NCBI GenBank assembly: GCA_964455855.1 | Contig: CAYVYQ010000003.1 | Span: forward strand, 1 to 44,917 | Direction of reading: 5' to 3' | Source: an uncultured Gammaproteobacteria bacterium | GTDB lineage: Bacteria; Pseudomonadota; Gammaproteobacteria; Magnimaribacterales; D2472 | DNA: 44,917 nt | Part shown: positions 4,564 through 44,917 of the stretch, piece by piece | Layout: the number at the start of each line of letters is the position of its first letter | How positions within the stretch are numbered: the first letter of the stretch is position 1 | The notes under the pieces: generated by a model | The model's database searches: none | Told to the model about the DNA's origin: nothing | The model's input: the letters and a program-made list of their open reading frames with translations, nothing else | Made by a program: the position numbers and the translations under genes

Positions 4564-5261
4564 ACTTTTAATTCCATTACTTCGTATGCATTCTCAAGAA
4601 TTTTATTAGATTCAAGCATAACTTTATAAGCATTTTTATTTTGTGCAAATCTGATGGTCGAGCTTGGCTCTTCATCAATAAAGTGAAGAGCTGCTCCTCC
4701 TTCAATTCCATACATAAAATTAATAGACCCATCTTCAAGAAATTTTTGAGTTGCTGGGCGCCTTTCTGGCTCCTCGTCATAATGGGGTGCGCAACTACCT
4801 GGAATAAAGTTCATGCATTGCATCATCTTGAGTTCACTGGCCCAAGAATCAGTTAATCCAGCTTCAAACCAACAAATAGCTCCAGCACTGACACCGCTCA
4901 TCACAACACCTTGTTGATATGCTTTTTTTAAAATTAAATCTAAACCCCAATCTCTCCAAACAGCTAACATGCTTTTTGTATTGCCTCCCCCAACAAAAAT
5001 TGCATCTTGTTTTAAAATATGTTCTTCAAGTTCAATTGTCCTTTTAAAAAAACTAATGTGAGTGGGTTCACATTCAAGTTTTGAAAATACAGAATAATAA
5101 TTGACAATATACGGATCTAAATCTCCAGTAGCCGTTGGAATAAAACAAATCTTTGGATTCTTTTTTGCTGTTTGATCTAAAATAAACTGTTCGATTAGAT
5201 TTGATTCTTGGGTCCTACCAAAACCTCCTCCACCAATTGCAATTACTTGACGCATTTTCAT
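4560..5261 (-). CDS. pepE: Peptidase E (S51 dipeptidase)
   Basis: FIPTATGD, DAIFVGGGNT, nucleophile GVSAGA, APHY; start 5261 or 5255. Confidence 0.9.
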   Translation of the reverse strand: MKMRQVIAIGGGGFGRTQESNLIEQFILDQTAKKNPKICFIPTATGDLDPYIVNYYSVFSKLECEPTHISFFKRTIELEEHILKQDAIFVGGGNTKSMLAVWRDWGLDLILKKAYQQGVVMSGVSAGAICWFEAGLTDSWASELKMMQCMNFIPGSCAPHYDEEPERRPATQKFLEDGSINFMYGIEGGAALHFIDEEPSSTIRFAQNKNAYKVMLESNKILENAYEVMELKV

Positions 5262-5281
5262 CCCTGAGAGATATTAGATTA

Positions 5282-6877
5282 ATGAAATTTAGCCACAAAT
5301 ATATCATTATTGGCGCCGGAAGTGCAGGCTGTGTTTTGGCAAATAAGCTTTCAGAAAATCCTGACAACTCAGTTCTCCTAATAGAAGCTGGTCCAATGGA
5401 TAATTATTCATCAATAAAGATGCCTTTAGCTGCAAGCTCTTTATTTAAAAATAAAAAATATGGTTGGGGCTATGAAACTGAGCCGGAGAAAAATTTAAAT
5501 AATAGAACTATTAATTGGCCACGAGGCAAAACTCTTGGGGGAAGTAGCTCAATCAATGGAATGCTTTACATCAGAGGACAGGCTGAGGACTATCAGGAAT
5601 GGGAAAAAGCTGGAAACAAAGGATGGGGTTATAGAGATTTAATGAAATATTTTGTGGCACTAGAAAATAACCAAAATCACGAAGATCAGTATCATGGAAA
5701 TTTTGGCTCTCTCTGGGTTGAAACCTATGAACCTATTCTTGAGGCGTCTAGGTCTTTTTTAAATGCTTGTAAAAAATATGGGCTCACAAAAAATAATGAT
5801 TTCAATGGAGAGGATCAAGAAGGTTATGGTCGGTATCAAGTTAATATCAAAAATGGGCAGAGATTCAGTGCATCTGATGCTTTTTTAAAACCAGTATTAG
5901 ATCGACCCAATCTAGATTTATTAACTAATACTTTAGTTGAGAAGATTATTACATCAAATAAAAAAGCCATTGGTGTGAAAATTAAAAATAAAAATGGAAT
6001 CAATATCATTGGATGCACCTCTGAAATAGTTCTGTGCGGAGGAAGCATAAACTCTCCCCAAATACTTATGCTATCCGGTATAGGACCCAAGGAGAGCCTT
6101 CTCAATCACAATATATCAGTAGTTCAAGATTTGCCTGGTGTTGGGCAAAATTTACAAGATCATCTTACGGTTAATATCAGTTACAAAATTGATAAATTAA
6201 AAACCTTTAGCGAACTTATGAAGCCACTTGGAATGATCAAAAATTTATTTGAATTCTTTGCACAACATAAAGGGTTAATGACTTATCCTGCCTCAGATAT
6301 TGGGGTATTTTTTAAAACAAATGACAAGGTAAAAACTCCTAATGCACAAATTCATTTTGCTCCTGGAGCTGGAAAATATAACAAAAATGGTGCTATGAAA
6401 CCCTCATCAGGGATCACGGCTTCTGTCTGCAATTTGAGACCCAAAAGTCGCGGTCATCTTGAGCTTGCATCCTCCAATCCTTCTGATGCACCAAAAATCT
6501 TTGCAAATTACCTCGAGGATCATGAAGACATGCAATGGATGATAGAAGGTGTTGAGAAGACTCGAGAAATATTTCAAACTGCTCCCATGAAAGAATTGGA
6601 AGCCAAGGAACTACAACCAGGAATCAAGTGCATTAATAAAGCTGATATTGAGGCATTTATTAGAAATGAATCTTTGTCAGTGTATCATCCAATAGGTACT
6701 TGTAAGATGGGAGAAACCAAAGAATGTGTGGTTGATGATCAATTGAAAGTAAAAGGCATATCAGGGCTGAGGGTAGCGGATGCATCTATATTCCCAAGCA
6801 TCATTTCTGGCAATACAAATGCAACCTGTAATGTTATTGGGGCTAAATGTGCAGATTTAATTTTAAATAAAAGATAG
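5282..6877 (+). CDS. GMC family FAD oxidoreductase (choline dehydrogenase-like); start corrected to ATG 5282
   Basis: GAGSAG FAD motif, RGKTLGGSSSINGM, GQNLQDH, YHPIGTC, GNTNA. Confidence 0.92.
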   Translation: MKFSHKYIIIGAGSAGCVLANKLSENPDNSVLLIEAGPMDNYSSIKMPLAASSLFKNKKYGWGYETEPEKNLNNRTINWPRGKTLGGSSSINGMLYIRGQAEDYQEWEKAGNKGWGYRDLMKYFVALENNQNHEDQYHGNFGSLWVETYEPILEASRSFLNACKKYGLTKNNDFNGEDQEGYGRYQVNIKNGQRFSASDAFLKPVLDRPNLDLLTNTLVEKIITSNKKAIGVKIKNKNGINIIGCTSEIVLCGGSINSPQILMLSGIGPKESLLNHNISVVQDLPGVGQNLQDHLTVNISYKIDKLKTFSELMKPLGMIKNLFEFFAQHKGLMTYPASDIGVFFKTNDKVKTPNAQIHFAPGAGKYNKNGAMKPSSGITASVCNLRPKSRGHLELASSNPSDAPKIFANYLEDHEDMQWMIEGVEKTREIFQTAPMKELEAKELQPGIKCINKADIEAFIRNESLSVYHPIGTCKMGETKECVVDDQLKVKGISGLRVADASIFPSIISGNTNATCNVIGAKCADLILNKR

Positions 6878-12827: not shown

Positions 12828-13259
12828 ATGAAATACCTTTTGCCGTTTTTGGTTATTGTGACCTCGGTAATAGGATCTCTAGCAAATATATATATTAACT
12901 CAGATGACTGGTATAGCAGTCTAAGCAAGAGTCCGCTTAATCCTCCTAGTTTTGTTTTTGGAATTGTCTGGCCAATACTATATGCATTAATGGCTTTTAT
13001 TGCATATAAGCTAGCACATAAAATAGCGCCTATATTTATTATGCAACTAGTTTTAAATGCAGCATGGTCATGGATATTCTTTTATTTTCATGCCCCATTT
13101 ATTGCACTTTTGGACATTGGTTTGTTGATTTATTTAAATCAGAGAATATTAATGATAATTAAGACCGAATCAATGACGCTATATTTTCTTTATCTTCCTT
13201 ATATCTTATGGCTATCATTTGCAGCATTTTTAAATGCTTCAATTGTTTTTCTGAATTAA
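12828..13259 (+). CDS. tspO: TspO/MBR tryptophan-rich sensory protein
   Basis: WYSSLSKSPLNPP, FGIVWPILY, LNAAWSWIFF, PYILWLSFA. Confidence 0.92.
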   Translation: MKYLLPFLVIVTSVIGSLANIYINSDDWYSSLSKSPLNPPSFVFGIVWPILYALMAFIAYKLAHKIAPIFIMQLVLNAAWSWIFFYFHAPFIALLDIGLLIYLNQRILMIIKTESMTLYFLYLPYILWLSFAAFLNASIVFLN

Positions 13260-26884: not shown

Positions 26885-27226
<342 letters not shown>

Positions 27227-27240
27227 TTAAGGAGATTAAT

Positions 27241-28521
27241 ATGGAAGAAATGAAATTTGCATTAGATACTTTCTACGCAATTATGTCAGGAGCATTGGTC
27301 ATGTGGATGGCTGCTGGATTTACCATGCTTGAAGCAGGCTTAGTCCAAAAGAAAGATGTTTCTGAAATCGTCACTAAAAACCTAGGTTTGTTTTCTATAG
27401 CATGCGTCATGTACCTTGTTTGTGGTTTTGTTCTCATGTACCCCGCTGAACCTGTCCTTGCTATCTCTGGTGGATTAGATGAGGCTGGTGAAGCTATTCT
27501 ATATGGAATCTTACCTGCCATCGGAACATCCTGGGGTCTTAGCACTGACATGCCTCTTGAAGAAATAGGTATGGCTTATGCGATGGATTACTCCCAGCAA
27601 GCTGACTTCTTTTTTCAGGTGGTGTTTGTTGCAACTGCTATGTCAATTGTTTCAGGTGCTGTAGCTGGAAGAATGAAGTTAATACCTTTCTTTATTTTTA
27701 CAGTTATCCTGACTGCGTTCATATACCCTGTTCAAGGATACTGGAATTGGGGTGGTGGTTTTTTAAGTACCCTTGGTTATTCTGATTATGCGGGCTCTGG
27801 CACAGTTCACCTTCTTGGTGCTGCTGCAGCGCTGGGAGTTGTAACTTTGCTTGGTGCTAGAAATGGAAAATATGGCTCAGACGGGTCTATCAACCCTATG
27901 CCAGGATCTAATATTCCTTTAGCTGCTTTAGGTGTTCTTATCTTATGGCTAGGTTGGTTCGGTTTTAATGGTGGTTCAGAGCTTGTAATTAGCGATGAAG
28001 CAAGCGCAATTGCTGTTAGCCAAGTTTTCATGAACACAAATATGGCTGCCGCTGGCGGTGTTATTGGTGCTCTAGTTTTAAGTTTAGCTCTCACTGGAAA
28101 AAGTGATGTCACAATGGTGATTAATGGAGCTATTGCTGGATTGGTAGCTATAACTGCTGGACCAAGCGCTCCAAGTGGAGGAGAGTCAGTGATTATTGGT
28201 TTTCTTGGTGGGTTATTGGTCTATGCATCGATTCTTTACTTTGACTCAAAATTAAAAATTGATGATCCAGTAGGCGCAATATCAGCTCATGGAATCGTGG
28301 GTATCTTTGGGGTGATGGTGGTTCCATTCACAAATACTGAAGCAACATTTTTAATGCAATTTATAGGTGTACTATCTATTGCTGGATTTGGTTTCATTGC
28401 AAGTTACGGAGCTGTCTATGTAATTAATATGTTTATGCCTATCAGAGCAACAGATGAAGAGCAGGCCTTGGGGCTTGACGCTTCTGAAATTGGAGTTGAA
28501 GCATATCCAGAGTTTAAATAA
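27241..28521 (+). CDS. amt: Ammonium transporter (Amt, non-AmtB subfamily)
   Basis: MAAGFTMLEAG, FFQVVF, DYAGSGTVH, GWFGFNGGS, DDPVGAISAHG. Confidence 0.96.
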   Translation: MEEMKFALDTFYAIMSGALVMWMAAGFTMLEAGLVQKKDVSEIVTKNLGLFSIACVMYLVCGFVLMYPAEPVLAISGGLDEAGEAILYGILPAIGTSWGLSTDMPLEEIGMAYAMDYSQQADFFFQVVFVATAMSIVSGAVAGRMKLIPFFIFTVILTAFIYPVQGYWNWGGGFLSTLGYSDYAGSGTVHLLGAAAALGVVTLLGARNGKYGSDGSINPMPGSNIPLAALGVLILWLGWFGFNGGSELVISDEASAIAVSQVFMNTNMAAAGGVIGALVLSLALTGKSDVTMVINGAIAGLVAITAGPSAPSGGESVIIGFLGGLLVYASILYFDSKLKIDDPVGAISAHGIVGIFGVMVVPFTNTEATFLMQFIGVLSIAGFGFIASYGAVYVINMFMPIRATDEEQALGLDASEIGVEAYPEFK

Positions 28522-28533
28522 TTAACTCTTCCT

Positions 28534-28564
28534 GATAACCGCCGACATCCAGTTGGCGGTTATC
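28534..28564 (+). terminator. Stem-loop after the first amt (probable terminator, weak U tail)
   Basis: GATAACCGCCGAC-ATCCA-GTTGGCGGTTATC, 13-bp stem with one G-U pair. Confidence 0.7.
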
Positions 28565-28565
28565 T

Positions 28566-28623
28566 TGCATCCAACCGGTGCACAAAGTTTAAGACGCAAC
28601 TTAAATTTCCCCAAAATAGTTCA
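28566..28623. promoter_or_regulatory. NtrC-type binding sites
   Basis: TGCATCCAACCGGTGCA (28566-28582) and weaker TTCCCCAAAATAGTTCA (28607-28623) versus consensus TGCACCA-N3-TGGTGCA. Confidence 0.65.
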
Positions 28624-28640
28624 AAATAGCCATTATAAGT

Positions 28641-29032
<392 letters not shown>

Positions 29033-29047
29033 AAAATAGGAGAAAAA

Positions 29048-30334
29048 ATGAAATTATTTAATATCTGTCTTGTTATATTTACCACCCTTCTTTCTCCAAC
29101 GCTGCTCTCGGCAGAGATTAACTCTGGAGACACAGCATGGATTCTTACAGCTACTGCCCTAGTTCTGTTTATGACCCTTCCAGGGTTGGCGCTATTTTAT
29201 GGTGGGCTGGTAAGAAATCAGAATATTTTGTCTGTTCTTATGCAGTGCTTTGCTATTTGCTGCATCGTGTCTGTTATTTGGGTCATCTACGGTTATAGCC
29301 TAGCTTTTACGGGTGCTGGCTCCATTATTGGTGGGACTGATGCCCTTTTCTTATCAAGCCTGATGAGAGAATCTGCTTCAGGCACTTTGCCAGAGAGTTT
29401 ATTTGTTGTATTCCAAATGACCTTTGCAGTGATTACCCCTGCGTTAGTTGTAGGAGCATTTGCAGAAAGAATGAAGTTTAGTGCCATGTGTATATTTACT
29501 GTACTTTGGGTAACTTTAGTTTACTTGCCAGCCTGCCATATGGTTTGGGGCGGCGGTTATCTTGGAAGCATAGGGGTTATTGATTTTGCAGGTGGATTAG
29601 TGGTTCACGCTACTTGTGGAATTGGTGCTTTAGTTGCTGCAATGATGCTGGGACCAAGAAAAGGTTTTCCTGGAGGATCACTTGTGCCTCATAACAGACC
29701 AATGGTAGTAATGGGTGCGGCTATGCTTTGGGTAGGATGGTTTGGATTTAATGGTGGAAGCGCTGTTGCCGCAGACTCTAGTGCCGCTATGGCTATTCTT
29801 GTTACTCACATCAGTGCAGCTGTTGGAGCTTTGACTTGGATGTCAGTGGAATGGATCAAAACAGGTAAGCCAACAGTTGTAGGTATAGCCACCGGCATGG
29901 TTGCCGGGCTAGCCACGATAACTCCTGCATCTGGAACAGTTGGACCTCAAGGTGCATTATTGATTGGATTATTGGCTGGTTTGGTTTGTTTCTATGCAAC
30001 TCAACTAATTAAAGGTTACTTTAAAATTGATGATTCTTTAGATGTTTTTCCAGTTCATGGAGTTGGGGGTATCTTAGGAATTCTCATGCTAGCTTTTGTT
30101 GGGAAGCCAGATGGATTCCTTGGAGCAGGAGCAGCTGGATTTGATCCAAGTGTCTTTGAACAATTTATGATTCAACTTCAAGGTGTTGTGGTTATATGCG
30201 CTTGGACTCTTGTCTTTTCTTGGATTGCCTTAAAGATTACATCATTCATGGCTGATTTAAGAGTGAGCGATGAAAATGAACACGAGGGTTTAGACTTAAC
30301 TGAGCATAACGAAAGTGCATATCACACGAACTAA
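29048..30334 (+). CDS. amtB: Ammonium transporter AmtB
   Basis: Signal peptide, SGDTAW, PGLALFYGG, DFAGGLVVH, GWFGFNGGS, DDSLDVFPVHG. Confidence 0.97.
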   Translation: MKLFNICLVIFTTLLSPTLLSAEINSGDTAWILTATALVLFMTLPGLALFYGGLVRNQNILSVLMQCFAICCIVSVIWVIYGYSLAFTGAGSIIGGTDALFLSSLMRESASGTLPESLFVVFQMTFAVITPALVVGAFAERMKFSAMCIFTVLWVTLVYLPACHMVWGGGYLGSIGVIDFAGGLVVHATCGIGALVAAMMLGPRKGFPGGSLVPHNRPMVVMGAAMLWVGWFGFNGGSAVAADSSAAMAILVTHISAAVGALTWMSVEWIKTGKPTVVGIATGMVAGLATITPASGTVGPQGALLIGLLAGLVCFYATQLIKGYFKIDDSLDVFPVHGVGGILGILMLAFVGKPDGFLGAGAAGFDPSVFEQFMIQLQGVVVICAWTLVFSWIALKITSFMADLRVSDENEHEGLDLTEHNESAYHTN

Positions 30335-31465: not shown

Positions 31466-32755
31466 TTAAGCTAGAAGCTGGATCATGACTCCTGCCGCAA
31501 CTGCAGAACCAATTACTCCAGCTACGTTTGGACCCATAGCATGCATGAGTAAAAAGTTTTGAGAATCATTTTCAAGACCTACTTTATTGACAACTCTTGC
31601 AGCCATTGGGACTGCTGAAACGCCAGCAGCACCAATCAGAGGATTGATTTTATTGGAGCTCAAAATATTCATTAGTTTTGCCATTAAAACACCTGAAGCT
31701 GTTCCGATTGAGAAAGCTATTATTCCCAGCGACAATATTCCCAGGGTTTCAGGAGTAAGGAATTGATCAGCGGCTAGTTTTGATCCAACGGCTAAGCCTA
31801 AAAAGATTGTTACTATGTTAATAAGTGAGTTTTGAACAACTTCACTTAATCTCTCAACAACCAAAGACTCCCTCATTAAATTTCCAAAACAGAACATACC
31901 TATAAGCGGCGCTGCACTGGGTAACATCATGCCAACTAGAAAAACCAAGATGATAGGAAAAATTATTTTTTCTTTTTGGGAAACTTCTCTTAATTGGACC
32001 ATTTTGATGGTTCTTTCAGTTTTGGTGGTCAAGAGCCTCATGATTGGAGGCTGTATCAAAGGCACTAATGCCATGTATGAGTAGGCTGCAACAGCAATTG
32101 CCCCCAAAAGCTCGGGAGCTAATATTGAAGAAACGTAAATTGCAGTTGGGCCATCTGCTCCTCCAATAATTCCAGTTGCAGCAGCTTGCTTTAAGGTGAA
32201 GGAAACAACTCCCAGCTCATTTAAAAGCAAAGCGCCAATTACAGTTGCAAAGATACCAAATTGGGCTGCAGCACCTAGTATTAAAGTTTTGGGATTTGCT
32301 AGCATCGGGCCAAAATCTGTCATAGCTCCTACACCCATAAAAATTACCAAGGGCGCAACCCCAGAACCAATGGCTACTGAGTAAAAAGTATTTAAAATTC
32401 CTGCCTTATATCCAAGCTCTGCAGCGTATTCATTTAATAGCCATAACTGAGAATGAGAAGCTGTTTTAAGAAAAGTAGTTAAGGATTCAGCATCACCAAG
32501 CGCGACCAAACTCAACGCTCCGGCTAATTCCTCTGAATTTGAAAAATAAATTAACTTCTCTATTGGGCTGAGAGCTAGACCAATTTCAGGTATGTTGGTA
32601 AGTATTGCGCCAAATCCGATAGGCAAAAGTAACAAGGGTTCAAATTTTTTACTGATAGCTAAATACAAAATTAAAAGGCCCACTAAAAGCATAATTGATT
32701 GCCCAAGACTTAAGCTGAAAATACCTAAGCTTGAAAATATAGCTTCAAAATTCAT
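31466..32755 (-). CDS. oadB: Na+-translocating oxaloacetate decarboxylase beta subunit
   Basis: [44 protein letters not shown]. Confidence 0.96.
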
Positions 32756-34509
32756 TAGTTAATAATTTCAAATAGAGGATTTCCAGGTTTAACTGTATCG
32801 CCAGGCTGAACATATATTTTGCCGATAACTCCAGTTGTGGGAGCTTTTATTTCTGTTTCCATTTTCATGGCTTCTAAAATAAGAACGGTTGAATCCATAG
32901 CAACAGATTCTCCCTCTGAGGCAATCAGTCTAAAGATATTTCCACCCAATGGAGCCTCAATTACTGTTCCAGATCCAGCCGGACTAGCTGGAGAGGATGA
33001 AACTTCTTTCGTTGCTGAGCCATCATTAATTGTTACTGAATTATCTGCCTTTAATGTTACTGAATATTCCTGATCATCAACTGTAACCAAATACGAAGCA
33101 TCGCTTAGCTGAGTAATCTCCATTGGCTCAGACTCAAAGTAGTCTAAATTATCAGCATTCTGTAAATAATTAAGTCCGATTTCTGGAAACATCACATAGA
33201 TGAGTATGTTTTCATCAGAGGCTTCAGCCAAAATAGCTTTATCAGCAATAGCTGTTTTAAAATCTTCTGCAGACGATTGAAAATCTTCATTAAGGAGATC
33301 AGCCGGTCTGCATGTAATTACCGCACTCTCACCGATGGCTTGTTGCTGTAAGTCCTTGTTTACTGGCGCAGGCGTTGCACCATACTCCCCTTTGAGCAGA
33401 GACTTCACCTCATTGGTAATCGTTGAATACCTAGAGCCAGATAATACATTTATTACTGATTGAGTGCCGACTATTTGAGACGTTGGCGTTACCAGTGGTA
33501 TGTAACCTAGCTCCTGTCTAACTTTAGGAATTTCTTGAATAACTTCATCAAACTTATCAATTGAATCCTGCGCTTTAAGTTGATTTTCAAGATTTGTTAA
33601 CATCCCACCAGGAACTTGTGAAGCGATAATTCGAGCATCCACTCCTCTGAGTGAACCTTCAAAATTCTTATATTTCTTTCTAATTGCCTGAAAATGCTCA
33701 GCGATTGGTATTAACTTATCAAGATCTAATTCGGTTTCTCGATTTGTTCCATCAAGAATACTGATCATTGTTTCGGTTGGAGTATGCCCATATGTCATAC
33801 TCATTGAGGAAATTGATGTATCAATATTGTCAAGCCCAGCCTCAATTGCTTTTACACCTGTTGCAACTGAAAAACCTGTAGTTGCATGACAATGGAGGTG
33901 AATAGGAATTTCAAGCTCCTCTTTAAGTCTTGAGACCAACTCAAATGCAACATATGGCTTTAATAAGCCAGCCATATCTTTTATTGCCAGAGAATGAGCG
34001 CCCATATCTTGAATCTTTTTTGCAAGATCTACCCATAAATCAATTGTATGAACAGGGCTGGTTGTATAGGATATTGTGCCCTGAGCATGACCTTCTGCTG
34101 CAATAACAGCTTGTAATGCCTGATGCATATTTCTTGTATCGTTTAAAGCGTCAAATACTCTAAAAACATCAACACCATTCTTTTTTGAGCACTCAACAAA
34201 TTTATTGACCACATCATCTGAGTAATGTTTATAACCCAATAAATTCTGACCTCTTAGGAGCATCTGCTGAGGAGTATTAGGCATCATGGATTTAATTTTT
34301 CGAATTCTTTCCCATGGATCCTCACCCAGGTATCTAATGCATGAATCAAAAATTGCGCCGCCCCATGATTCGACAGACCAGAAACCAACATCATCTAAAT
34401 TCTTTAAGGCAGCTTCCATGTCATGGTATCTAAATCGAGTTGCAAGCAAAGATTGATGAGCGTCTCTTAAAACCACTTCTGTAACGCCAATTTTTTTAGA
34501 TTCTGTCAT
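32755..34509 (-). CDS. oadA: Oxaloacetate decarboxylase alpha subunit
   Basis: [27 protein letters not shown], biotinyl motif EAMKM. Confidence 0.96.
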
Positions 34510-36862: not shown

Positions 36863-37050
36863 TAATTTTGAAGAAATTTCGAAAAAATTTTTCTTGCAAA
36901 AATATACATTGGAATAATGATGCATGAGGTGATAAAGACCTCTAACCAAGTATTGAATTGTAAAAGATTTCGAATGAAGCCTGCTAAAAATAAACTTACC
37001 AAGCCCAATAAACTATAAAGAATAATTGAGTTACGACTGAAGAGATTCAT
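36862..37050 (-). CDS. Small two-helix membrane protein
   Basis: 62 aa, two hydrophobic segments, coupled to both neighbours. Confidence 0.6.
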   Translation of the reverse strand: MNLFSRNSIILYSLLGLVSLFLAGFIRNLLQFNTWLEVFITSCIIIPMYIFARKIFSKFLQN

Positions 37051-38287
37051 TGGTACTTTTAACCTTTAAAAGAATTATGGCGCCCATGATAAACAGTGCA
37101 GCAATAGGTATCAAGCCATATCTTGTATCTTGAAAAAAAGTAACAAAAATTGCAACGAGTGCTGGTCCCATGAATGCGCCAGCACGCCCAAACATATTAT
37201 AAAATCCAAAATATTCACCAGATTCATCTTGCGGTATCAAGGTTGCATAATAACTTCTTGAGATCGATTGAATGCCGCCTTGAATGGCCCCAACCATTGA
37301 AGCAAGAATATAAAACTCGATAGCATTTGAAAGAAATGCAGAGTATCCAATCACAATGAGGTAAAGAGAGATTGTAAAGAGCAAAGTATTTTTATCACCA
37401 AATTTATAAGCAAACTTTGACCATAACAAAGTGGTCGGAAAAGCTACAAATTGTACTAAGATCAGCGCAATGATTACGTCGCTGCTAGGCAAGCCTAGAT
37501 TTAAGGCAAAATCAGCTGCCATTGCCATGATTGTATGAACGCCATCAATGTATAGAAAAAAGGCTAATAAAAATATAAACACATTTTTCTTTGCTGAAAC
37601 CGTCTTTAAGGTATTGAATACTTTGGTATAAGCAAGCTTAAAATGAGAGCCAGGAAGATTTGCTCCTTTATCTTGAATTTTTAAAAGAATAGGAATCAAA
37701 AATAAAGTCCACCAAACGGAGACACTTAAAAAAGACCATCTAACGGCATCGGCGACACTGGAAAGTCCAAAAAACTCAGGTTTAATTGTCATGGCTGCAT
37801 TGATAAGGAATAGTAAACCTCCGCCAAGATAGCCGAATGCAAAACCATAACTAGATATTCGAGCGATGTTACTTTCATTTGAAACTTGAACCAGCATCTT
37901 ATCGTATAAAGTGTTGCCGGCTGCAAAGCAATAATTTGCAATACCAAAAAATATTAAAGCCTGAAGCCATGAGCCTGCTGGAATAAAATACAACACAGCA
38001 ACAGAAATAATAGATATCGCCCCAAACCCGGTAAATAATATTTTTGTTGTTCTGGAGACATCAGTTAACGCGCCAATGAATGGCGAAGTAAACAAGAGAA
38101 CAAGATTAGAAATTGTTAAACCCCAACCAAGATAGGCGGTTTTAACTTCAGCTTCGAGTCCAGATGCCCAGAAATCATTAAAAAAAATTGGGAAAAAGGC
38201 AGCAATTACAGTTGTGGCAAAAGCAGAATTTCCTCCGTCATAAAGAATCCATGCCTTGGCCTCTGCTGAAAGTTTAGCTTTGCTCAT
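37031..38287 (-). CDS. MFS transporter, UMF1/Atg22-like
   Basis: AWILYDGGNSAF, GFAFGYLGGG, SISRSYYA, EYFGFY; start MSKAK at 38287. Confidence 0.9.
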   Translation of the reverse strand: MSKAKLSAEAKAWILYDGGNSAFATTVIAAFFPIFFNDFWASGLEAEVKTAYLGWGLTISNLVLLFTSPFIGALTDVSRTTKILFTGFGAISIISVAVLYFIPAGSWLQALIFFGIANYCFAAGNTLYDKMLVQVSNESNIARISSYGFAFGYLGGGLLFLINAAMTIKPEFFGLSSVADAVRWSFLSVSVWWTLFLIPILLKIQDKGANLPGSHFKLAYTKVFNTLKTVSAKKNVFIFLLAFFLYIDGVHTIMAMAADFALNLGLPSSDVIIALILVQFVAFPTTLLWSKFAYKFGDKNTLLFTISLYLIVIGYSAFLSNAIEFYILASMVGAIQGGIQSISRSYYATLIPQDESGEYFGFYNMFGRAGAFMGPALVAIFVTFFQDTRYGLIPIAALFIMGAIILLKVKSTNESLQS

Positions 38288-39299
38288 ACCAGCATTGATT
38301 ATTATCAAGAGATTTTTTAATTAAGCCCCTATAAAACAAGCAATTTAAATGGCCTAAAGATTCTCCAGTTGCCATAATTAGATTGGTATCATCTATTTCC
38401 CTTTTGAATAAGACGTCAAAAACATCAACGGCTCGCTTTGGAGTTTTAAGGACAGCATGAAGCTTTTCTAGTGATTGCTCATGATGATTGATGAGAGTAT
38501 TTAATCTTTTATGCGCACCAATAAAAGGTCTTCCATGGGCAGGCAAAACCAAAACATCTTCAGGTAATTTTTCAATCAGTTTATGACAAGAAGAAATCCA
38601 ATCCTCCACTGGGTTCGCAGCAGGTTCTGTAGGAAAAGTGCCAACGTGTGAGCTGATAGTTGGCAACAATTGATCGCCACTTATGAACATATTTAATTCC
38701 TTGGAAAAGAAACATAAGTGCTCCATTGTGTGCCCTCGTCCTTCTATAGCCACCCAATCAATCCCATTGACTTGAATAACATCATCCTCTTTGAGTCGAT
38801 TATATGATTGAGGTAAAGGGTGAATAATGGACCCAAAAAAACCAAATCTTTCTGTAAAGGCTTTGATCTGCCCTTCTGTCATTCCAGCTTGAGTATAAAA
38901 ATCTATCGCTTCATGAGGAACGTTGTCACCCGTATCTGCTGATAACATTCGACACTGGAGATAATCAGTTCTGCTCATACTGAAGGTGGTGTTATATTTC
39001 TTTACAAACCAACCAGCCATTCCAATATGGTCTGGATGCATGTGTGTGACCACAACATCTTTTATTGATAGTTTTTCTTGCTCTATCAAATTAACCCAAG
39101 CATTTTTAGTGTCATCAAGATGCATGCCAGTATCAACTAAAGTTAGGTTGTCTTGAGTGCCTAGACCCCAGAGATTTATGTGATTCAAAGACATAGGCAA
39201 AGGCATTCTAATCCAACGAACATGTTCATTGATGGCGTGCAAAGTTCCCGATTGTGGAACCACATCAAGCGGAAAAGTTAATCTTGTTTCTGAATTCAT
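38274..39299 (-). CDS. MBL-fold metallo-hydrolase
   Basis: VDTG, THMHPDH, GHT, SGDQ, PAHG. Confidence 0.92.
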   Translation of the reverse strand: MNSETRLTFPLDVVPQSGTLHAINEHVRWIRMPLPMSLNHINLWGLGTQDNLTLVDTGMHLDDTKNAWVNLIEQEKLSIKDVVVTHMHPDHIGMAGWFVKKYNTTFSMSRTDYLQCRMLSADTGDNVPHEAIDFYTQAGMTEGQIKAFTERFGFFGSIIHPLPQSYNRLKEDDVIQVNGIDWVAIEGRGHTMEHLCFFSKELNMFISGDQLLPTISSHVGTFPTEPAANPVEDWISSCHKLIEKLPEDVLVLPAHGRPFIGAHKRLNTLINHHEQSLEKLHAVLKTPKRAVDVFDVLFKREIDDTNLIMATGESLGHLNCLFYRGLIKKSLDNNQCWYEQS

Positions 39300-39337
39300 A
39301 ATTGATTATGGAAATATTAGATGGTTATACTAAGCAA

Positions 39338-39439
39338 ATGAATGATGATGCACAAACGATAAAAAGCTTAGGACTATTTGTTTTAGGCATAGGTGGGTTA
39401 GTTTTTGTACTTGGCATTGTAGCTTATTTAATTATTTAA
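39338..39439 (+). CDS. Small membrane protein, 33 aa (not in ORF track)
   Basis: MNDDAQTIKSLGLFVLGIGGLVFVLGIVAYLII; TATACT 6 nt before ATG; fills the intergenic gap. Confidence 0.65.
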   Translation: MNDDAQTIKSLGLFVLGIGGLVFVLGIVAYLII

Positions 39440-40046
39440 CCCTTAACTTTCCAGGCTTTGAGTCTCGACGTAAAGCCTTCAAAAACGAATCAGCCTCCAC
39501 AGGCTCAGCTACGTCGTTATCACGTATATATTCGCTGCTCCAAAACTCTTTCCAAGATGGAAATAAATCATGAAAATATCCTTCATAATTTTCCTGGCCT
39601 GGCCAACGCATTTTTTGATCGCCAAGCGGCGGTTTGTTTAAGTCGGTTGCATACCAATACATCGGCAGTCTTTTTTTAAACAGCCATCTTCCATTAACTC
39701 TCTTATAGGTATCCCAATACAACATTTGCATAATCACCCATTCAGTCTCAGTTTCATGCTCATTCTTTGAATAGACCAATCCAATGGCAGAATCAGGAGA
39801 ATCAAAATCTATAATATGATTTCCAATATGATGCGAGGTGCCAGTGAATTGATCCCTAAATGTTGCATCAGCCCATTCTTTTAATGCTTGCCTGCCAGCG
39901 CCATCTTTTCCGACTCTTACATCGGGGACAAATAAATTAACGTGCATATCTAAATCACGCATGTCTAAAGTAACAGAGTACTTTGCGGCAAGCTGCCTAA
40001 TCTCGTCCAAAGACTCAAGTCTATCTAACCTTTCTTCAATGCTCAT
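39432..40046 (-). CDS. NTF2/SnoaL-like protein (BaiE/LinA-type fold)
   Basis: RLDRLESLDEIRQL..KY...LD, TSHHIGNH, YWDTYKRVNGRWLF. Confidence 0.85.
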   Translation of the reverse strand: MSIEERLDRLESLDEIRQLAAKYSVTLDMRDLDMHVNLFVPDVRVGKDGAGRQALKEWADATFRDQFTGTSHHIGNHIIDFDSPDSAIGLVYSKNEHETETEWVIMQMLYWDTYKRVNGRWLFKKRLPMYWYATDLNKPPLGDQKMRWPGQENYEGYFHDLFPSWKEFWSSEYIRDNDVAEPVEADSFLKALRRDSKPGKLRVK

Positions 40047-40049
40047 TAA

Positions 40050-40388
40050 TTATCCTGGAGGCCACTGCAAAGGTCTGCCGCTTAACAGGTGAAGGTGAAG
40101 ATGAAAAACGCTTTGCCCAGCCTTAGCTCCATTATTTGTAACAAGTCTAAAGGTTTCATCTAACCCAAGGTCCCGAGCGACCTCTCCTGCAACCCACATT
40201 AAATGACCAAGAAGCTCTTTGTCTTCCTCTGATGCATCTGAAAGTTTAGGTATTGGTTTTTTAGGAATAATTAATAAATGTGTAGGGGCCTGCGGATTAA
40301 TGTCTTTAAAGACAAGAGATAGATCATCCTCAAAAATAATATCTGCGGGAATTTCTTTGTTAATAATTTTAGTGAAAAGTGTTTCCAT
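40050..40388 (-). CDS. hinT: Histidine triad nucleotide-binding protein
   Basis: [24 protein letters not shown]. Confidence 0.95.
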
Positions 40389-40392
40389 AAAT

Positions 40393-40581
40393 CTAAATAA
40401 GAAATCGAATCAATCTAAAACCTACATAAAATACACCAGTAGTGATGCCTAATGCCAAAACAATCAACAGTAAGTCTCTCAGAGATTTTAAAAATTTTCC
40501 TTCAGGGGAATTTTTTAATAGTTGTTGCACTAAAAATAAAAGCGCAACAATGGATAAGAATAATATTATTAATGTAATCAT
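40393..40581 (-). CDS. Small two-helix membrane protein
   Basis: 62 aa, two hydrophobic segments, tightly packed in the operon. Confidence 0.6.
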
Positions 40582-40583
40582 AA

Positions 40584-41090
40584 TTATTTAAATATAGAGC
40601 CTACTGATACCACAAGCAAGGCTAGAGCAATGGCCCATAATGTACAAGCTATGACATCAGCCACATAAAATCTTTTTAACCTTAAATCAGTAATTCCTAG
40701 TAAAAAAGGAACTAAGGGACGTATTGCTGGGATAAATCTTCCAACCAAGACAGTATAGGGACCAAAACGTTCTAAAAATTCTTGGGTTTTATTAATTGGT
40801 TTTTGGCGTTTTTGCATAAACTTTGAGCTTAGAAGGCGTGGACCAATAGATTTTCCAACTAAAAATCCGCATACATCACCCACGTGCGACCCAAGCAAAG
40901 CAATACCGCAGATCCAAGGGAGAGTGAGCAATTCAATGTTGTAAAGGTAAATGCATAGAGAAAAAAGAACAGCGCTTGGCATAAAGCTTCCAGTAATAAT
41001 CATTGATTCCATAAATCCAAAGAAAAAAACGAGCACCCACCCATACTCAGGGTTAGTTTCTAAAAAGAGTTGGATTCTTTCAAAAGACAT
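40584..41090 (-). CDS. DedA family membrane protein
   Basis: FMES...G.FMP, GDVCGF, GRFIPAIR. Confidence 0.9.
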   Translation of the reverse strand: MSFERIQLFLETNPEYGWVLVFFFGFMESMIITGSFMPSAVLFSLCIYLYNIELLTLPWICGIALLGSHVGDVCGFLVGKSIGPRLLSSKFMQKRQKPINKTQEFLERFGPYTVLVGRFIPAIRPLVPFLLGITDLRLKRFYVADVIACTLWAIALALLVVSVGSIFK

Positions 41091-41092
41091 GA

Positions 41093-41836
41093 TTATTTAT
41101 TTTTTTTAGCAAAAAATTTTTCTACTGCTTTTATATTATCCTCTGAGCCAAATAGCTTTTTCATAGCTGCGGTTTCCATGGATCGAGATTTAGCAAGATC
41201 TTCTTGCATGAATGCTTTCAATATAGCTTTAGTTTCAATGATTGAACTCAGTGATTGTTCTTTGAGCATATGAGCGTATTTATTTGCCTCATCGAAAAAA
41301 TCCTCGCCAACATATTTAGCTAAACCTAGCTCATGATATCTATTGCCATCTATTGGCTGAGATTCAAATAACAGTTGTGCGGCTTGTTGATACCCTAGAG
41401 ATTGAAAAAGCAAAAAAGAACTGCCCACTTCAGGAGCCAATCCCAAATCAGAAAATGGATATTTAATCTTTGCATTTGGAGCAATGAAGACAGCATCAAA
41501 ATGCAAAAGAATTGTTGCCCCGCCTCCTACAGCTGCACCCTCAACGGCTCCAATTAATGGCTTTTTAAAATTAATCAATGCATCAATACATGTTTCAAAT
41601 GGCTCTTCATACTCAGCACCACCATCTCCCATCATGCTGCTTAAATCAACACCGGATGAAAAAGTGTTTGAAGATCCTGTCACTACTACTGAGGAAATAT
41701 CTGGATCGTCACTGGCAGAATTTAATGCGTCTCTAAAAAGACCCCATAATTCTGCATCAAATGCATTTTTCGTCTCAGGACGATTAAATATAAGGGTGCG
41801 AACACCCTCATTGGTTTCTACTAGAAGTTTGCTCAC
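41093..41836 (-). CDS. Enoyl-CoA hydratase/isomerase
   Basis: NRPETKNA, FSSGVDL, GAAVGGG, LGLAPE; GTG start overlapping upstream TGA. Confidence 0.9.
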   Translation of the reverse strand: MSKLLVETNEGVRTLIFNRPETKNAFDAELWGLFRDALNSASDDPDISSVVVTGSSNTFSSGVDLSSMMGDGGAEYEEPFETCIDALINFKKPLIGAVEGAAVGGGATILLHFDAVFIAPNAKIKYPFSDLGLAPEVGSSFLLFQSLGYQQAAQLLFESQPIDGNRYHELGLAKYVGEDFFDEANKYAHMLKEQSLSSIIETKAILKAFMQEDLAKSRSMETAAMKKLFGSEDNIKAVEKFFAKKNK

Positions 41837-42630
41837 TTTCCTTTAAAGTTTGGTTTTCTTTTTTCAGCAAATGCTGTCAATCCTTCCATCATGTCTTCTG
41901 TAGAAAAAATTGGTTGGCCTATTTCAAGTTCTTTTTCTAAAGCCTCAGCCTCTGTATAACTTTCATCAATCTCACGTAGTGATTTCACAATAGCTTGAAT
42001 AGATAAAGGAGCATTTTCACTAACAGTTTCAGCAATCTCCATAGCTTTTTCTAATGCACTTCCATCTTCTACAACGTGACCAATCAAACCAAATCTTAAG
42101 GCTTCGTCGGAAGAAATTCGTCTACCAGTTAATAGGGCCTCAGCCGCAAGAGTGTATGGAATTTGTCGTCTCAGTCTTACAGTAGAACCACCTAATGGGA
42201 ATAGGCCTCTGAGTGGTTCTGATAAACCAAATACTGCGCTTTTGCCGGCAACTCTGATATCAGTTCCTTGTAAAATTTCTGTGCCACCAGCAAGGGCAAA
42301 GCCTTCAACGGCAGCGATGATTGGTTTAGTTGGTCTGTTATGTCTAAGCAAGGATTGCCAATGTAAATCAGGAATCTCCTTAAGCTTTTCCATCATATCA
42401 GAATCTTCATTACCATCTTTCATGGCACTTAGATCGGCCCCAGAGCAGAAGGTTCCTCCAGCACCGGTTAGAACTGCGCATCGCAAGTTAGGATCTTCAT
42501 CAAGCTTTCTCCAGGCTTCATAAATAGTTACAAGCATGCCTGGGCTCAAAGCATTCCGTTTTTCAGGACGATTAAGTGTGATCACCATAATGTGACCTTT
42601 TTCTTCTACTATTGCGTGATCTGTATTCAT
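41833..42630 (-). CDS. Enoyl-CoA hydratase, EchA19-like
   Basis: FCSGADL, AGGTEILQGTDIRVAG, GLFPLGGSTVRLRRQIPYT; adjacent to ltp3/ltp4-like genes. Confidence 0.88.
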   Translation of the reverse strand: MNTDHAIVEEKGHIMVITLNRPEKRNALSPGMLVTIYEAWRKLDEDPNLRCAVLTGAGGTFCSGADLSAMKDGNEDSDMMEKLKEIPDLHWQSLLRHNRPTKPIIAAVEGFALAGGTEILQGTDIRVAGKSAVFGLSEPLRGLFPLGGSTVRLRRQIPYTLAAEALLTGRRISSDEALRFGLIGHVVEDGSALEKAMEIAETVSENAPLSIQAIVKSLREIDESYTEAEALEKELEIGQPIFSTEDMMEGLTAFAEKRKPNFKGK

Positions 42631-42643
42631 AAAGCTCCTCTAA

Positions 42644-43792
42644 CTAGTCAAGTGATGATGATACTATCCACATAGCAAAAAATTGTGCAGCACCGCCGTA
42701 TGCATGACCCATTGCAACTTTAGCATCTTCAACTTGATGGTCCTCTGCCAATCCCATGACTTGAAGTGCAGCCTCACCAAATCTAATCATCCCTGATGCG
42801 CCAATTGGATTAGAGGATAAAACTCCACCAGACATATTAAATGGAAGCTCGCCATCAATTGCAGTTGCATCTTTATCTGTTAGCTTCCAACCTTCCCCTA
42901 AATCACAAAATCCGAGGTTCTCTAACCACATTGGTTCATACCAGGAAAATGGGACATAAATCTCAGCACAATCAATTTCATTAAATGGATTGCTAATACC
43001 CGCTTGATTGTAAATATCTTTTGCGCAATCAATTCCAGCTTGAGGATTTACTTCATCCCTTCCAGCTGACAAAGTGCCTTCTGATCTGACTGCCATACCT
43101 TTAATCCATGCAACGTTTCTTGAACCAACTTGATCTTGTGCAGTAATAACCATCGCACATGCACCATCGGAAGATGGGCAGCTTTCAAGATAGCGCAAAG
43201 GCTCCCAGAGCATAGGGGTGTCACTTACCATTTTTTCATCGATACCAGGAATGTGGAGATGAGCTAATGGGTTTTTTAGTGCATTTTGACGATCCTTGGC
43301 TGCGACTTTCCAACCAATATGTTCAGGTGCCTCATATCGACGAATGTATTCCCTAATGAAAGGAGCAAAGTAACCACCGGCTCCAGCATTTATATGCGGA
43401 GAGTATGGATATCGAGGAGATAAAGCCCATGTCGCATTGGATTCAGATTGTTTTTCAAAAGTCACTGTTAGCACTGTCTTAAACTGGCCTGAGCAAACAT
43501 GCGATGCAGCAATCACTGCGGTGCTTCCCCCAACACTGCCAGCGGTGTGAACTCGCAACACAGGCTTGCCCACAGCTCCAATTGCATCAGCTAAATATAA
43601 TTCGGGCATGATGACGCCTTCAAACATGTCTGGTGCCTTGCCTAAGATCACTGCATCAATAGCATCCCATTCAAGGTTGGCTGCTAGCATTGCATTGTCA
43701 ATGGCCTCTCTTACCAATCCAGCCATGGAAACATCACGTCTCTTAGCATCATATTTTGTCTGCCCAACGCCTATTACTCCTGCTTGAATCAT
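42644..43792 (-). CDS. ltp3: SCP2-type thiolase-fold protein, Ltp3-like
   Basis: GKAPDMFEGV, RVHTAGSVGGST, EKQSESNA, EIYVPFSWYE, GGVLSSNPIGASG, GHAYGG. Confidence 0.85.
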   Translation of the reverse strand: MIQAGVIGVGQTKYDAKRRDVSMAGLVREAIDNAMLAANLEWDAIDAVILGKAPDMFEGVIMPELYLADAIGAVGKPVLRVHTAGSVGGSTAVIAASHVCSGQFKTVLTVTFEKQSESNATWALSPRYPYSPHINAGAGGYFAPFIREYIRRYEAPEHIGWKVAAKDRQNALKNPLAHLHIPGIDEKMVSDTPMLWEPLRYLESCPSSDGACAMVITAQDQVGSRNVAWIKGMAVRSEGTLSAGRDEVNPQAGIDCAKDIYNQAGISNPFNEIDCAEIYVPFSWYEPMWLENLGFCDLGEGWKLTDKDATAIDGELPFNMSGGVLSSNPIGASGMIRFGEAALQVMGLAEDHQVEDAKVAMGHAYGGAAQFFAMWIVSSSLD

Positions 43793-44844
43793 TTTTGTGC
43801 CTCTAGGTGGACTAGCATGTTGTGTTGAAGACAGGGACCAGAAGTTGCGTGAGCCAAGCCATGAGTGAATTGATTATCTTTAAGTGATTCATAGGTCTTG
43901 CCGATTGCATCAAGCCCTGCACACATCATTACGTTTCCAACCAATGGGCCGCCTGAAAGATTGGTTGGAACATCTTGAAGATTTAATAAAGATTTTAAAA
44001 AAGGTAGTTCATGACTAAACTGGGTGTGTAATTCGGCAACATCAAACTTTATATTTTTTAAATTTAATTGGTTCATTGAAGCTTGCAAAGTATCAGAGGT
44101 AGCAAGATTCCTAGAGCCTAGGTTTGATGATTCAATTCTGTGATCAATGCCCTCTATCCAAATAGGATGATCTGTAAATTCATAAGCTTTTTCTTCTGAT
44201 GCAATAATCATCGCAGAGGAACCGTCTGAAATTGGTGGGCAATCTAACTTATTTAATGGCGAAGATACCATTGCATTCTTTAAATAATCTGACTCATCAA
44301 TTAGATCAGTGATTAAGGCGTTCTTATTATTTTTTGAGTTAGCCCTTGCTTCAATGACTGTCGCGAGCATTTGCTCTGAGGTAATGACATTTTGATCAAG
44401 CAGAACTCTGGCTTGCAGAGCCGCTAAACTAACTCGGTCAGGCCATAAAGGAGAAATATAGTATGGATCCATTTGAAGGGAAATAATTGCATCCAAATCT
44501 CCGGGAGATGATTTCCCAAACCCATATATTAGGGCTGTCTCAGCATCACCCATTTGAATTTTTAGCATTGACTCATACATGGCCCATGCTGCATCCATTT
44601 CTACGTGAGATTCTTTTATTGGTGGATTGGTTTGAATGGCAGACAAACCCTCCACAAAAGCAAAAGCCGCTCCTTGTAGATAATCACAACTGCCAGAGCA
44701 GGTAAAATCAATGTCCTTTTGGCTGATACCCAAATTATTAAACAGCTGATGCACCACCGGCATGATGAGTTCAACCTCATTCAACGCTCCTGCATTTTTT
44801 AATATTGGATGTTGAGCATACCCAACGATAGCGACTCTTTTCAT
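43789..44844 (-). CDS. ltp4: Thiolase-fold lipid-transfer protein, Ltp4-like
   Basis: FTCSGSCDYLQG, PPIKESHVEMDAAWA, GFGKSS, AHATSGPCLQHN. Confidence 0.85.
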   Translation of the reverse strand: MKRVAIVGYAQHPILKNAGALNEVELIMPVVHQLFNNLGISQKDIDFTCSGSCDYLQGAAFAFVEGLSAIQTNPPIKESHVEMDAAWAMYESMLKIQMGDAETALIYGFGKSSPGDLDAIISLQMDPYYISPLWPDRVSLAALQARVLLDQNVITSEQMLATVIEARANSKNNKNALITDLIDESDYLKNAMVSSPLNKLDCPPISDGSSAMIIASEEKAYEFTDHPIWIEGIDHRIESSNLGSRNLATSDTLQASMNQLNLKNIKFDVAELHTQFSHELPFLKSLLNLQDVPTNLSGGPLVGNVMMCAGLDAIGKTYESLKDNQFTHGLAHATSGPCLQHNMLVHLEAQK

Positions 44845-44917
44845 GATTCTTGGAACCTCAATGTTGCAACATCTACATCTGGTTCATCGATAGGAGCAAA
44901 CCATTTAATATTTTCTA
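44841..44917 (-). CDS. Partial CDS (3' end), probable Zn-ribbon/OB-fold DUF35 partner of Ltp3/Ltp4
   Basis: ...ENIKWFAPIDEPDVDVATLRFQES*, TGA overlaps ltp4 ATG; position and tail resemble the OB-fold gene preceding ltp4 in actinobacteria. Confidence 0.55.
   Translation of the reverse strand, partial: ENIKWFAPIDEPDVDVATLRFQES

Follow-up and report, generated by a model that had tools for sequence, protein, structure and literature searches.

The stretch of DNA analysed here (the window) is an entire contig of 44,917 nucleotides, C3, of a draft genome that comprises 1.09 Mb in 86 contigs and is 73% complete and 0.04% contaminated. The host belongs to SAR86, and the first-pass annotation, made from the sequence alone, had correctly described it as a streamlined gammaproteobacterium. 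Here, we describe a group of genes on the minus strand at the right-hand end of the contig, which resembles the DUF35-ltp4-ltp3-echA19 module of actinobacteria and whose putative role in the degradation of sterol side chains is weighed below. In the direction of transcription, the first of them is a DUF35 gene, the second of a pair and coding for an OB-fold protein with a Cys4 zinc ribbon, of which only the C-terminal end is present at 44841..44917: its open frame (44915..44841) reaches the contig edge and leaves the last 24 codons and TGA, the remainder lying past the contig end. It is followed by genes for an Ltp4-like thiolase-fold protein of 351 amino acids (43789..44844), an Ltp3-like thiolase-fold protein of 382 amino acids (42644..43792), an EchA19-like enoyl-CoA hydratase of 265 amino acids (41833..42630) and a second crotonase-fold protein of 247 amino acids (41093..41836) that matches Pfam ECH_1. 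The DUF35 gene and ltp4 overlap by ATGA, ltp4 adjoins ltp3 and is translationally coupled to it via a 4-nucleotide ATGA overlap at 43789-43792, a gap of 13 nucleotides separates ltp3 from the echA19-like gene, and the GTG start of the second crotonase gene overlaps the stop of the latter (GTGA). The stretch was present in six RNA runs. Contigs of four metatranscriptome runs from four studies, which carry neither strand nor level, covered 30, 26, 22 and 17 of the 30 bins of positions 38000-44917 at an identity of at least 95%, and some of them spanned the ltp4/ltp3, ltp3/echA19 and echA19/crotonase junctions. Scans of the same region were uninformative, both for promoter-like sites (13 versus 17.8 expected) and for terminator-like sites (2 versus 5.7 expected).

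The Ltp3-like protein passed the cut-off of its NCBIfam family (NF006180/PRK08313, 637.9 bits versus 514) and matched Thiolase_C_1 (PF22691) and Thiolase_N (PF00108) of Pfam. The Ltp4-like protein, for which the Pfam search gave no match, aligned over its full length (residues 1-350 of 351) with the 'lipid-transfer protein' model NF005924/PRK07937 at 414.3 bits, missing the cut-off of 419 by 5 bits, while its orthologues from Zhongshania and Actinocorallia scored 495 and 492; on the strength of synteny we file it as a diverged Ltp4 orthologue. The hydratase passed NF005864/PRK07799 (369 bits versus 316) and failed the EchA19 equivalog NF051848 (347.3 bits versus 400), a cut-off which is also failed by the hydratase orthologues of Zhongshania, Actinocorallia and a Mycobacteriales metagenome-assembled genome (MAG). 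Its closest solved relatives are the EchA19 chains 6wyi (E 1.7e-82) and 4f47 (E 9.7e-82), with 280 bits versus 203 for the next family. No NCBIfam model was found above its cut-off for the second crotonase, which may be a hydratase, an isomerase or a decarboxylase. With E-values of 1e-111 to 1e-192, chance similarity is ruled out. The models PRK08313, PRK07937 and PRK07799 are typified, as we take it, by Rv3523, Rv3522 and Rv3516, respectively.

The first-pass annotation had proposed an actinobacterial-type module, with a DUF35 gene ahead of ltp4 and an EchA19-like hydratase after ltp3. Family matches, gene order and PDB relatives agree with the module as a whole, the hydratase is identified by NF005864 and by its nearest solved relative, and the DUF35 gene could be recognised from a sister genome. 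In the latter, the locus (L003) lies on a 214-kb SAR86 contig with 90% DNA identity to the window over 8 kb. Upstream of ltp4 it encodes an acyl-CoA ligase of 554 amino acids, a DUF35 protein of 151 amino acids without the zinc ribbon and a DUF35 protein of 166 amino acids with a Cys4 ribbon, and the last of these matches PF01796 (DUF35 OB-fold) and PF12172 (zinc ribbon) and has a C-terminus identical to the 24-residue tail in the window. The best family of the ligase was CasG (steroid-24-oyl-CoA synthetase), with 548 bits versus a cut-off of 750, and its PRK07798 score was only 185. A search of the present 73%-complete assembly for the missing DUF35 sequence and for the head of the operon found neither. 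The full SAR86 operon, as present in the sister genome, is made up of a CasG-like ligase, a DUF35 protein, a DUF35 protein with the Cys4 ribbon, Ltp4, Ltp3, an EchA19-like hydratase and a second crotonase.

Active-site residues of the thiolase-fold pair

We mapped the catalytic positions of the Ltp3-like protein by aligning it to the true thiolases 7yvy, 6hsj and 6esq. Gly85 (of HTAGSVG) stands at the position of the nucleophilic Cys, Y279-V-P-F at that of the HDCF motif of SCP2 thiolases, with Pro in place of the acid/base Cys, and Asn328 at that of the His of GHP. The residues H82, G85, Y279-F282 and N328 were invariant in 13 homologues of 68-92% identity. The Ltp4-like protein has a deletion between M83 and D84 of SHVEMD where 6esq carries its three-residue Cys loop, its HDCF position is occupied by H273-T-Q-F, in which the acid/base Cys is replaced by Gln, and Asn304 stands at the GHP His position according to a weak second alignment segment. 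The alignments therefore recover what had been noticed in the first pass, namely two adjacent thiolase-fold genes devoid of the nucleophilic Cys (Gly85 in one protein, the loop deletion in the other) and, in the Ltp3-like protein, NP for the GHP His together with the Tyr of YVPF.

The thiolase fold would suit a pair of ordinary 3-ketoacyl-CoA thiolases, as would the names under which such proteins are filed in databases, 'acetyl-CoA C-acetyltransferase' and 'lipid carrier protein'. Against this stand Gly85, the Pro in HDCF and the Asn for the GHP His in Ltp3, and the deleted Cys loop and the Gln in HDCF in Ltp4, whose GHP His is also Asn by the weak alignment. On these residues we rejected true 3-ketoacyl-CoA thiolases as the identity of both proteins, and we give this explanation almost no credence. 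The loss of the two Cys positions, together with the Tyr that opens the HDCF motif, points to an aldolase rather than a thiolase.

According to the accessible text of a recent study (PMC12329534, 2025), Tyr294 of the YDHF motif is the base and Tyr344 the acid in the steroid aldolase Ltp2, catalysis by Sal depends on Tyr302 and Cys304 of YDCY, and SCP2 thiolases have HDCF at this site. Tyr279 of the Ltp3-like protein occupies the same motif position as the bases Tyr294 of Ltp2 and Tyr302 of Sal, and the third position of the motif is Pro. Judged by spacing (+49), Asn328 would correspond to the second Tyr of Ltp2 and to a Gln of Sal. The invariant His82 can be put forward, as a speculation, as a candidate for the general acid.

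Like Ltp2-ChsH2(DUF35) (PDB 6ok1), the Ltp3-like protein is a probable thiolase-fold aldolase that lacks the Cys, would be partnered by DUF35 and has Tyr as the first residue of the HDCF-equivalent motif, and its sequence similarity to Ltp2 is only E 2e-13. Ltp2, however, is a homodimer with YDHF and Tyr344, whereas SAR86 Ltp3 has YVPF, Asn328 by spacing and a degenerate paralogue as a partner. The bile-acid aldolase Sal-Shy of Comamonas testosteroni is likewise proteobacterial, is paired with DUF35 and uses Tyr as its base, the steroid role of the SAR86 proteins being presumed; in Sal-Shy the catalytic pair is Tyr302 and Cys304 (YDCY) and DUF35 forms a fusion protein with a MaoC hydratase, whereas SAR86 has a crotonase-type hydratase and free-standing DUF35 proteins (available portion of PMC12329534). 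SCP2-type thiolases in complex with DUF35 proteins (archaeal thiolase/HMG-CoA synthase, BbsAB) have the same fold and likewise combine a thiolase-like protein with DUF35, but they retain the catalytic Cys and perform thiolysis or condensation. The SAR86 operon offers a compact, AT-rich version of Ltp3/Ltp4 for study, with a YVPF and Asn site unlike that of both solved steroid aldolases.

Conservation of the module and its possible origin

Relatives were sought with one genome per species, which gave at least 596 confirmed relatives, and the best 80 loci were retained. Gene order was counted in the 73 of these loci in which the flank upstream of ltp3 measured 2.2 kb or more, seven loci with shorter flanks being excluded, and the order DUF35-DUF35-Ltp4-Ltp3 was found in all 73, across Gammaproteobacteria and Actinobacteria. 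An EchA19-like gene (at least 45% identity) lay inside the retrieved flank in 35 of the 80 loci. The DUF35 pair is split in 53 of 75 loci and fused in 22, with both states in both phyla, and the idea that the split pair is a SAR86 peculiarity was rejected. Outside SAR86, median identity was 67% for Ltp3, 44% for Ltp4 and 48% and 42% for the two DUF35 proteins, which fits one catalytic and three structural subunits. The Ltp3-like protein is thus the probable catalytic retro-aldolase subunit, and the Ltp4-like protein is probably a non-catalytic partner.

Against orthologues of other phyla the Ltp3-like protein was 63-72% identical. With the actinobacterial system, in which Rv3521 (tandem DUF35), Ltp4 (Rv3522) and Ltp3 (Rv3523) occur together with EchA19 and FadD19, the SAR86 operon shares the order of the four genes, the NCBIfam families, thiolase folds that lack the Cys and a nearby EchA19-type hydratase, in addition to an Ltp3 identity of 63-68%. 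It differs in its host, in the CasG-like ligase at its head, in the second crotonase within the operon, in an Ltp4 that falls just below the family cut-off and in that no Ltp2/ChsH was found in the relatives searched. In the Mycobacteriales MAG, an Ltp3 orthologue of 67% identity lies near a FadA5-type steroid 3-ketoacyl-CoA thiolase (669 bits versus 515), and the locus also carries an EchA19-type hydratase and a PRK07798 ligase (719 versus 543). The module of the Cellvibrionales (Zhongshania, Halieaceae, Spongiibacteraceae) comes from the sister clade and has, like that of SAR86, EchA19 and a second crotonase downstream; in most Cellvibrionales loci the latter, 33-39% identical to the SAR86 protein, is encoded 3-6 kb beyond ltp3 in the downstream direction. 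Their module, in contrast, has a PRK07798-type ligase after ltp3 and a CaiB-type protein, and the DUF35 pair is fused in Zhongshania.

We also built an Ltp3 tree, which was a quick maximum-likelihood tree of 86 rows with SH-aLRT support only, rooted on five long-branched Ltp4 rows. SAR86 (support 100) is sister to Cellvibrionales in one gammaproteobacterial clade (98), and this clade joins Mycobacteriales and Frankiales within the actinobacterial diversity (87); the SAR86 branch is long (0.55). Such a topology fits an actinobacterial origin of the gammaproteobacterial module, with rooting and sampling both weak. The G+C content of positions 42001-44000, which hold ltp3 and ltp4, is 43.5%, versus 34-41% in the remaining window, and may reflect either a foreign origin or a strong amino-acid constraint. 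One further locus (L015) comes from a MAG with the label Cryomorphaceae (Bacteroidota), but its module is of the Halieaceae type and its Ltp3 nests within Halieaceae; here a binning error is more likely than a transfer.

Predicted steroid catabolism in the host and the candidate substrate

A steroid-nucleus cluster for C/D-ring and meta-cleavage steps was recognised by profile matches on another contig of the same genome (C2, about 24-45 kb; L099:6114-7888 and L100:251-19036). It contains a FadD3-family ligase (693 bits versus 657), an EchA20-type crotonase (445 versus 280), a FadA6-type PRK07801 thiolase (644 versus 591), an IpdF-type PRK07831 short-chain dehydrogenase/reductase (382 versus 336) and an HsaD-like hydrolase below its cut-off (181 versus 400), and in addition an HsaC-like extradiol dioxygenase, two IpdAB-like CoA-transferase subunits, a nitronate-monooxygenase-type protein, an acyl-CoA dehydrogenase pair, a P450, HsaE/G/F-type genes, a KshA-like oxygenase and two AsnC regulators. 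The first-pass annotation had asked for further steroid genes in the genome as a check, and the FadD3, FadA6-type, EchA20-type, IpdF-type, HsaC-like and HsaD-like genes provide them. KstD and HsaAB were not identified among the steroid-nucleus genes of the present genome, which is 73% complete, and no steroid-specific names came up when contigs C15, C27 and C33 were compared with NCBIfam at E 1e-60, a threshold which was too strict. The KshA-like oxygenase (L100:15258-16556, that is C2:40898-42196) is split into a Rieske protein of 145 amino acids and a KshA_C protein of 281 amino acids; between the two genes there are stop codons (TAA and TAG) and a ribosome-binding site (AGGAGA). The KshA_C open frame measures 281-286 amino acids in three other SAR86 genomes also.

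Co-occurrence was surveyed in 151 genomes of the SAR86 order from 21 genera, the present genome counted in. Ltp3 was found in 15 genomes and FadD3 in 15, with both in 13; two genomes (88 and 94% complete) have Ltp3 without FadD3 and two (86 and 90% complete) have FadD3 without Ltp3. Both genes are confined to the same 5 of the 21 genera, and neither was found in the families f3 (0/40) and f4 (0/30). In an even class-wide sample, Ltp3 occurred in 1 of 399 other scored genomes, which is too few for a co-occurrence test.

Wilbrink reportedly described ltp3 and ltp4 of Rhodococcus rhodochrous in 2012. As far as the available part of PMC6678751 goes, a genetic phenotype cited there indicates that Rhodococcus needs Ltp3/Ltp4 to degrade C24-branched sterol side chains, and the proposed route runs through C26 oxidation, CoA activation, desaturation, C28 carboxylation, hydration and Ltp3-Ltp4 cleavage. 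We think it fairly probable, if by no means certain, that the genes in the window make up the distal section of a SAR86 operon whose orthologue is the actinobacterial module Rv3521-ltp4-ltp3 plus echA19, and that they encode a Cys-less retro-aldol lyase complex and a hydratase for branched sterol side chains. The most likely substrates would be C24-alkyl phytoplankton sterols. The ligase would form the CoA thioester of the steroid side-chain acid and, after desaturation, the EchA19-like hydratase would yield a beta-hydroxyacyl-CoA with an alkyl branch on the beta carbon; ordinary beta-oxidation is blocked because of this branch. The thiolase-shaped complex, made up of Ltp3 (catalytic, with Tyr279 as the presumed base), Ltp4 (the degenerate partner) and the two DUF35 proteins, would then split the C-C bond by a retro-aldol reaction, and the cleavage products would feed the steroid-nucleus pathway encoded by the same genome.

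The enzymes might instead act on non-steroid beta-branched acyl-CoAs (isoprenoid, phytol-derived or hopanoid-type acids), as a part of a broad lipid beta-oxidation in SAR86. This would accord with the position of the module apart from the steroid cluster, with the housekeeping genes that flank it in Zhongshania, with the heavy investment of SAR86 in beta-oxidation and its phytanoyl-CoA dioxygenases (accessible text of PMC11582366) and with a CYP125-like P450 (best PDB match CYP125MRCA, E 2e-82) that is widespread irrespective of Ltp3. However, FadD3 is present in 5/5 Ltp3-bearing genera and in 0/16 others, the actinobacterial orthologues sit in steroid clusters, and the nearest solved hydratase is EchA19. 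We hold non-steroid substrates to be improbable.

A second alternative arises from the search for a further side-chain aldolase in four relatives. In 4/4 of them, the PF01796 matches were only the two DUF35 genes of the operon; Ltp3 was the sole PF22691 protein in 3/4 distinct relatives, the extra one in the fourth (G001) being a PRK06289-type thiolase; and one small MaoC protein above the family cut-off was found in each genome. The extra protein, an SCP2 thiolase, is encoded on contig C1 of that genome beside an acyl-CoA ligase, a dioxygenase of the carotenoid/lignostilbene-cleavage type and a thiolase (L104:3072-9659), a locus which may serve apocarotenoid degradation. No marker domains of Ltp2/ChsH were found elsewhere in the present 73%-complete genome. 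The same enzymes could thus work at another steroid step, or make all the retro-aldol cuts; they might, for example, remove the stub of the side chain at C17 or act on bile-acid-like C24 acids that the CasG-like ligase had activated. The operon's DUF35 pair as the only one in all four relatives, the lack of an Ltp2/Sal-type protein among the PF22691 matches, steroid-24-oyl-CoA synthetase as the best family of the ligase and the long SAR86 branch in the Ltp3 tree all speak for it. On the other hand, the identity of 63-72% to the actinobacterial orthologues and the invariant active-site residues point to an unchanged substrate, and the CasG match is under its cut-off. The actinobacterial Ltp3 orthologues presumably coexist with Ltp2. 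On balance, we consider a different steroid step unlikely.

Several observations weigh against an assignment to branched sterol side chains. A literature search gave no assay of any Ltp3/Ltp4-family enzyme from any organism; the substrate is deduced. The ligase is CasG-like, whereas ltp3 of Cellvibrionales and Mycobacteriales neighbours a PRK07798-type ligase, and the module does not share a contig with the steroid-nucleus cluster but sits amid unrelated genes. Since related genomes are not independent, the co-occurrence of Ltp3 and FadD3 is a pattern and not a statistic, and may come down to two to five lineages. The CYP125-like P450 occurs in 90 of the 151 genomes and in 16 of the 21 genera, and was rejected as an Ltp3-specific marker because it occurs regardless of Ltp3. 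The carboxyltransferase that the proposed C28 carboxylation would require is present, but its copies lie about 85 kb or more from steroid genes and none could be assigned. Neither an Ltp2/ChsH nor a Sal/Shy system was found in the four relatives with PF22691, PF01796 and MaoC searches; thus side chains would be degraded by a route other than that of the textbooks, whose known last step cannot be reconstructed. The contigs from RNA libraries may also contain carried-over DNA.

A bolder proposal takes Ltp3/Ltp4, the two free-standing DUF35 proteins and the two crotonases to be the only side-chain aldolase system of the ring-degrading SAR86 genera, a stripped-down pathway without Ltp2/ChsH or Sal/Shy that would let an abundant surface-ocean clade mineralise C24-alkyl phytoplankton sterols and act as a sizeable sink; to this we attach little probability. 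Phytoplankton sterols are mostly C24-alkylated, and the alkyl group blocks ordinary beta-oxidation. If the sterol assignment is true, some SAR86 genera would use whole algal sterols, beyond hormones or bile-acid-like steroids, and this would bear on the older view, found in the accessible texts of PMC4810484 and PMC5790920, that sterol degradation is limited to Actinobacteria.

The sink had been called potentially little-described in the first-pass annotation, a claim that did not hold, as SAR86 steroid catabolism was published in 2016 and 2024. In the parts of these papers available to us, Bergstrand 2016 reported a testosterone/cholate pathway in 3/3 SAR86 drafts (PMC4810484), and Freel 2024 reported that side-chain beta-oxidation is widespread in SAR86, that cyp125 homologues are present and that full ring degradation is found in few genera (PMC11582366). 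The word 'ltp3' is absent from the accessible texts of both, and ltp3, ltp4, echA19 and DUF35 are absent from the 12 of 14 supplementary files of Freel 2024 that could be consulted, in which fadD19 is present (PMC11582366). The accessible text of Holert 2018 (PMC5790920) contains neither 'Ltp' nor 'SAR86', and a literature search on ltp3 with steroid and Proteobacteria returned nothing on marine bacteria. Isolates of Zhongshania, Halieaceae and BD1-7 grow on cholesterol, as stated in the available part of Holert 2019 (bioRxiv 10.1101/775916), and the Cellvibrionales, sister of SAR86 in the Ltp3 tree, thus include genera with cholesterol-growing isolates. The Ltp3/Ltp4 finding refines the published SAR86 predictions and opens no new field.

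Neighbouring genes in the window

Two nucleotides downstream of the second crotonase gene lies a gene on the same strand for a VTT/DedA-family membrane protein of 168 amino acids (40584..41090), recognised by the match of its L003 orthologue to Pfam VTT_dom. It is possibly co-transcribed with the module, and its membership of the module is uncertain. Together with genes for HIT, SnoaL_4, an MBL-fold hydrolase and an ATG22/MFS transporter it fills positions 37031-41090, and among the best 80 loci the VTT/DedA gene and those further downstream are kept beside the module only in the SAR86 loci L003-L005 and L007.

Farther away, the window holds alpha and beta subunits of a biotin enzyme of the Na+-translocating oxaloacetate-decarboxylase type (31466-34509), with no tie to side-chain carboxylation, and two tandem pairs of P-II (GlnK-type) and ammonium-transporter genes (26888-30334). 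A TspO/MBR protein is encoded at 12828-13259 and a GMC oxidoreductase at 5201-6877; the GMC family takes in cholesterol oxidases, and eukaryotic relatives of TspO bind cholesterol.

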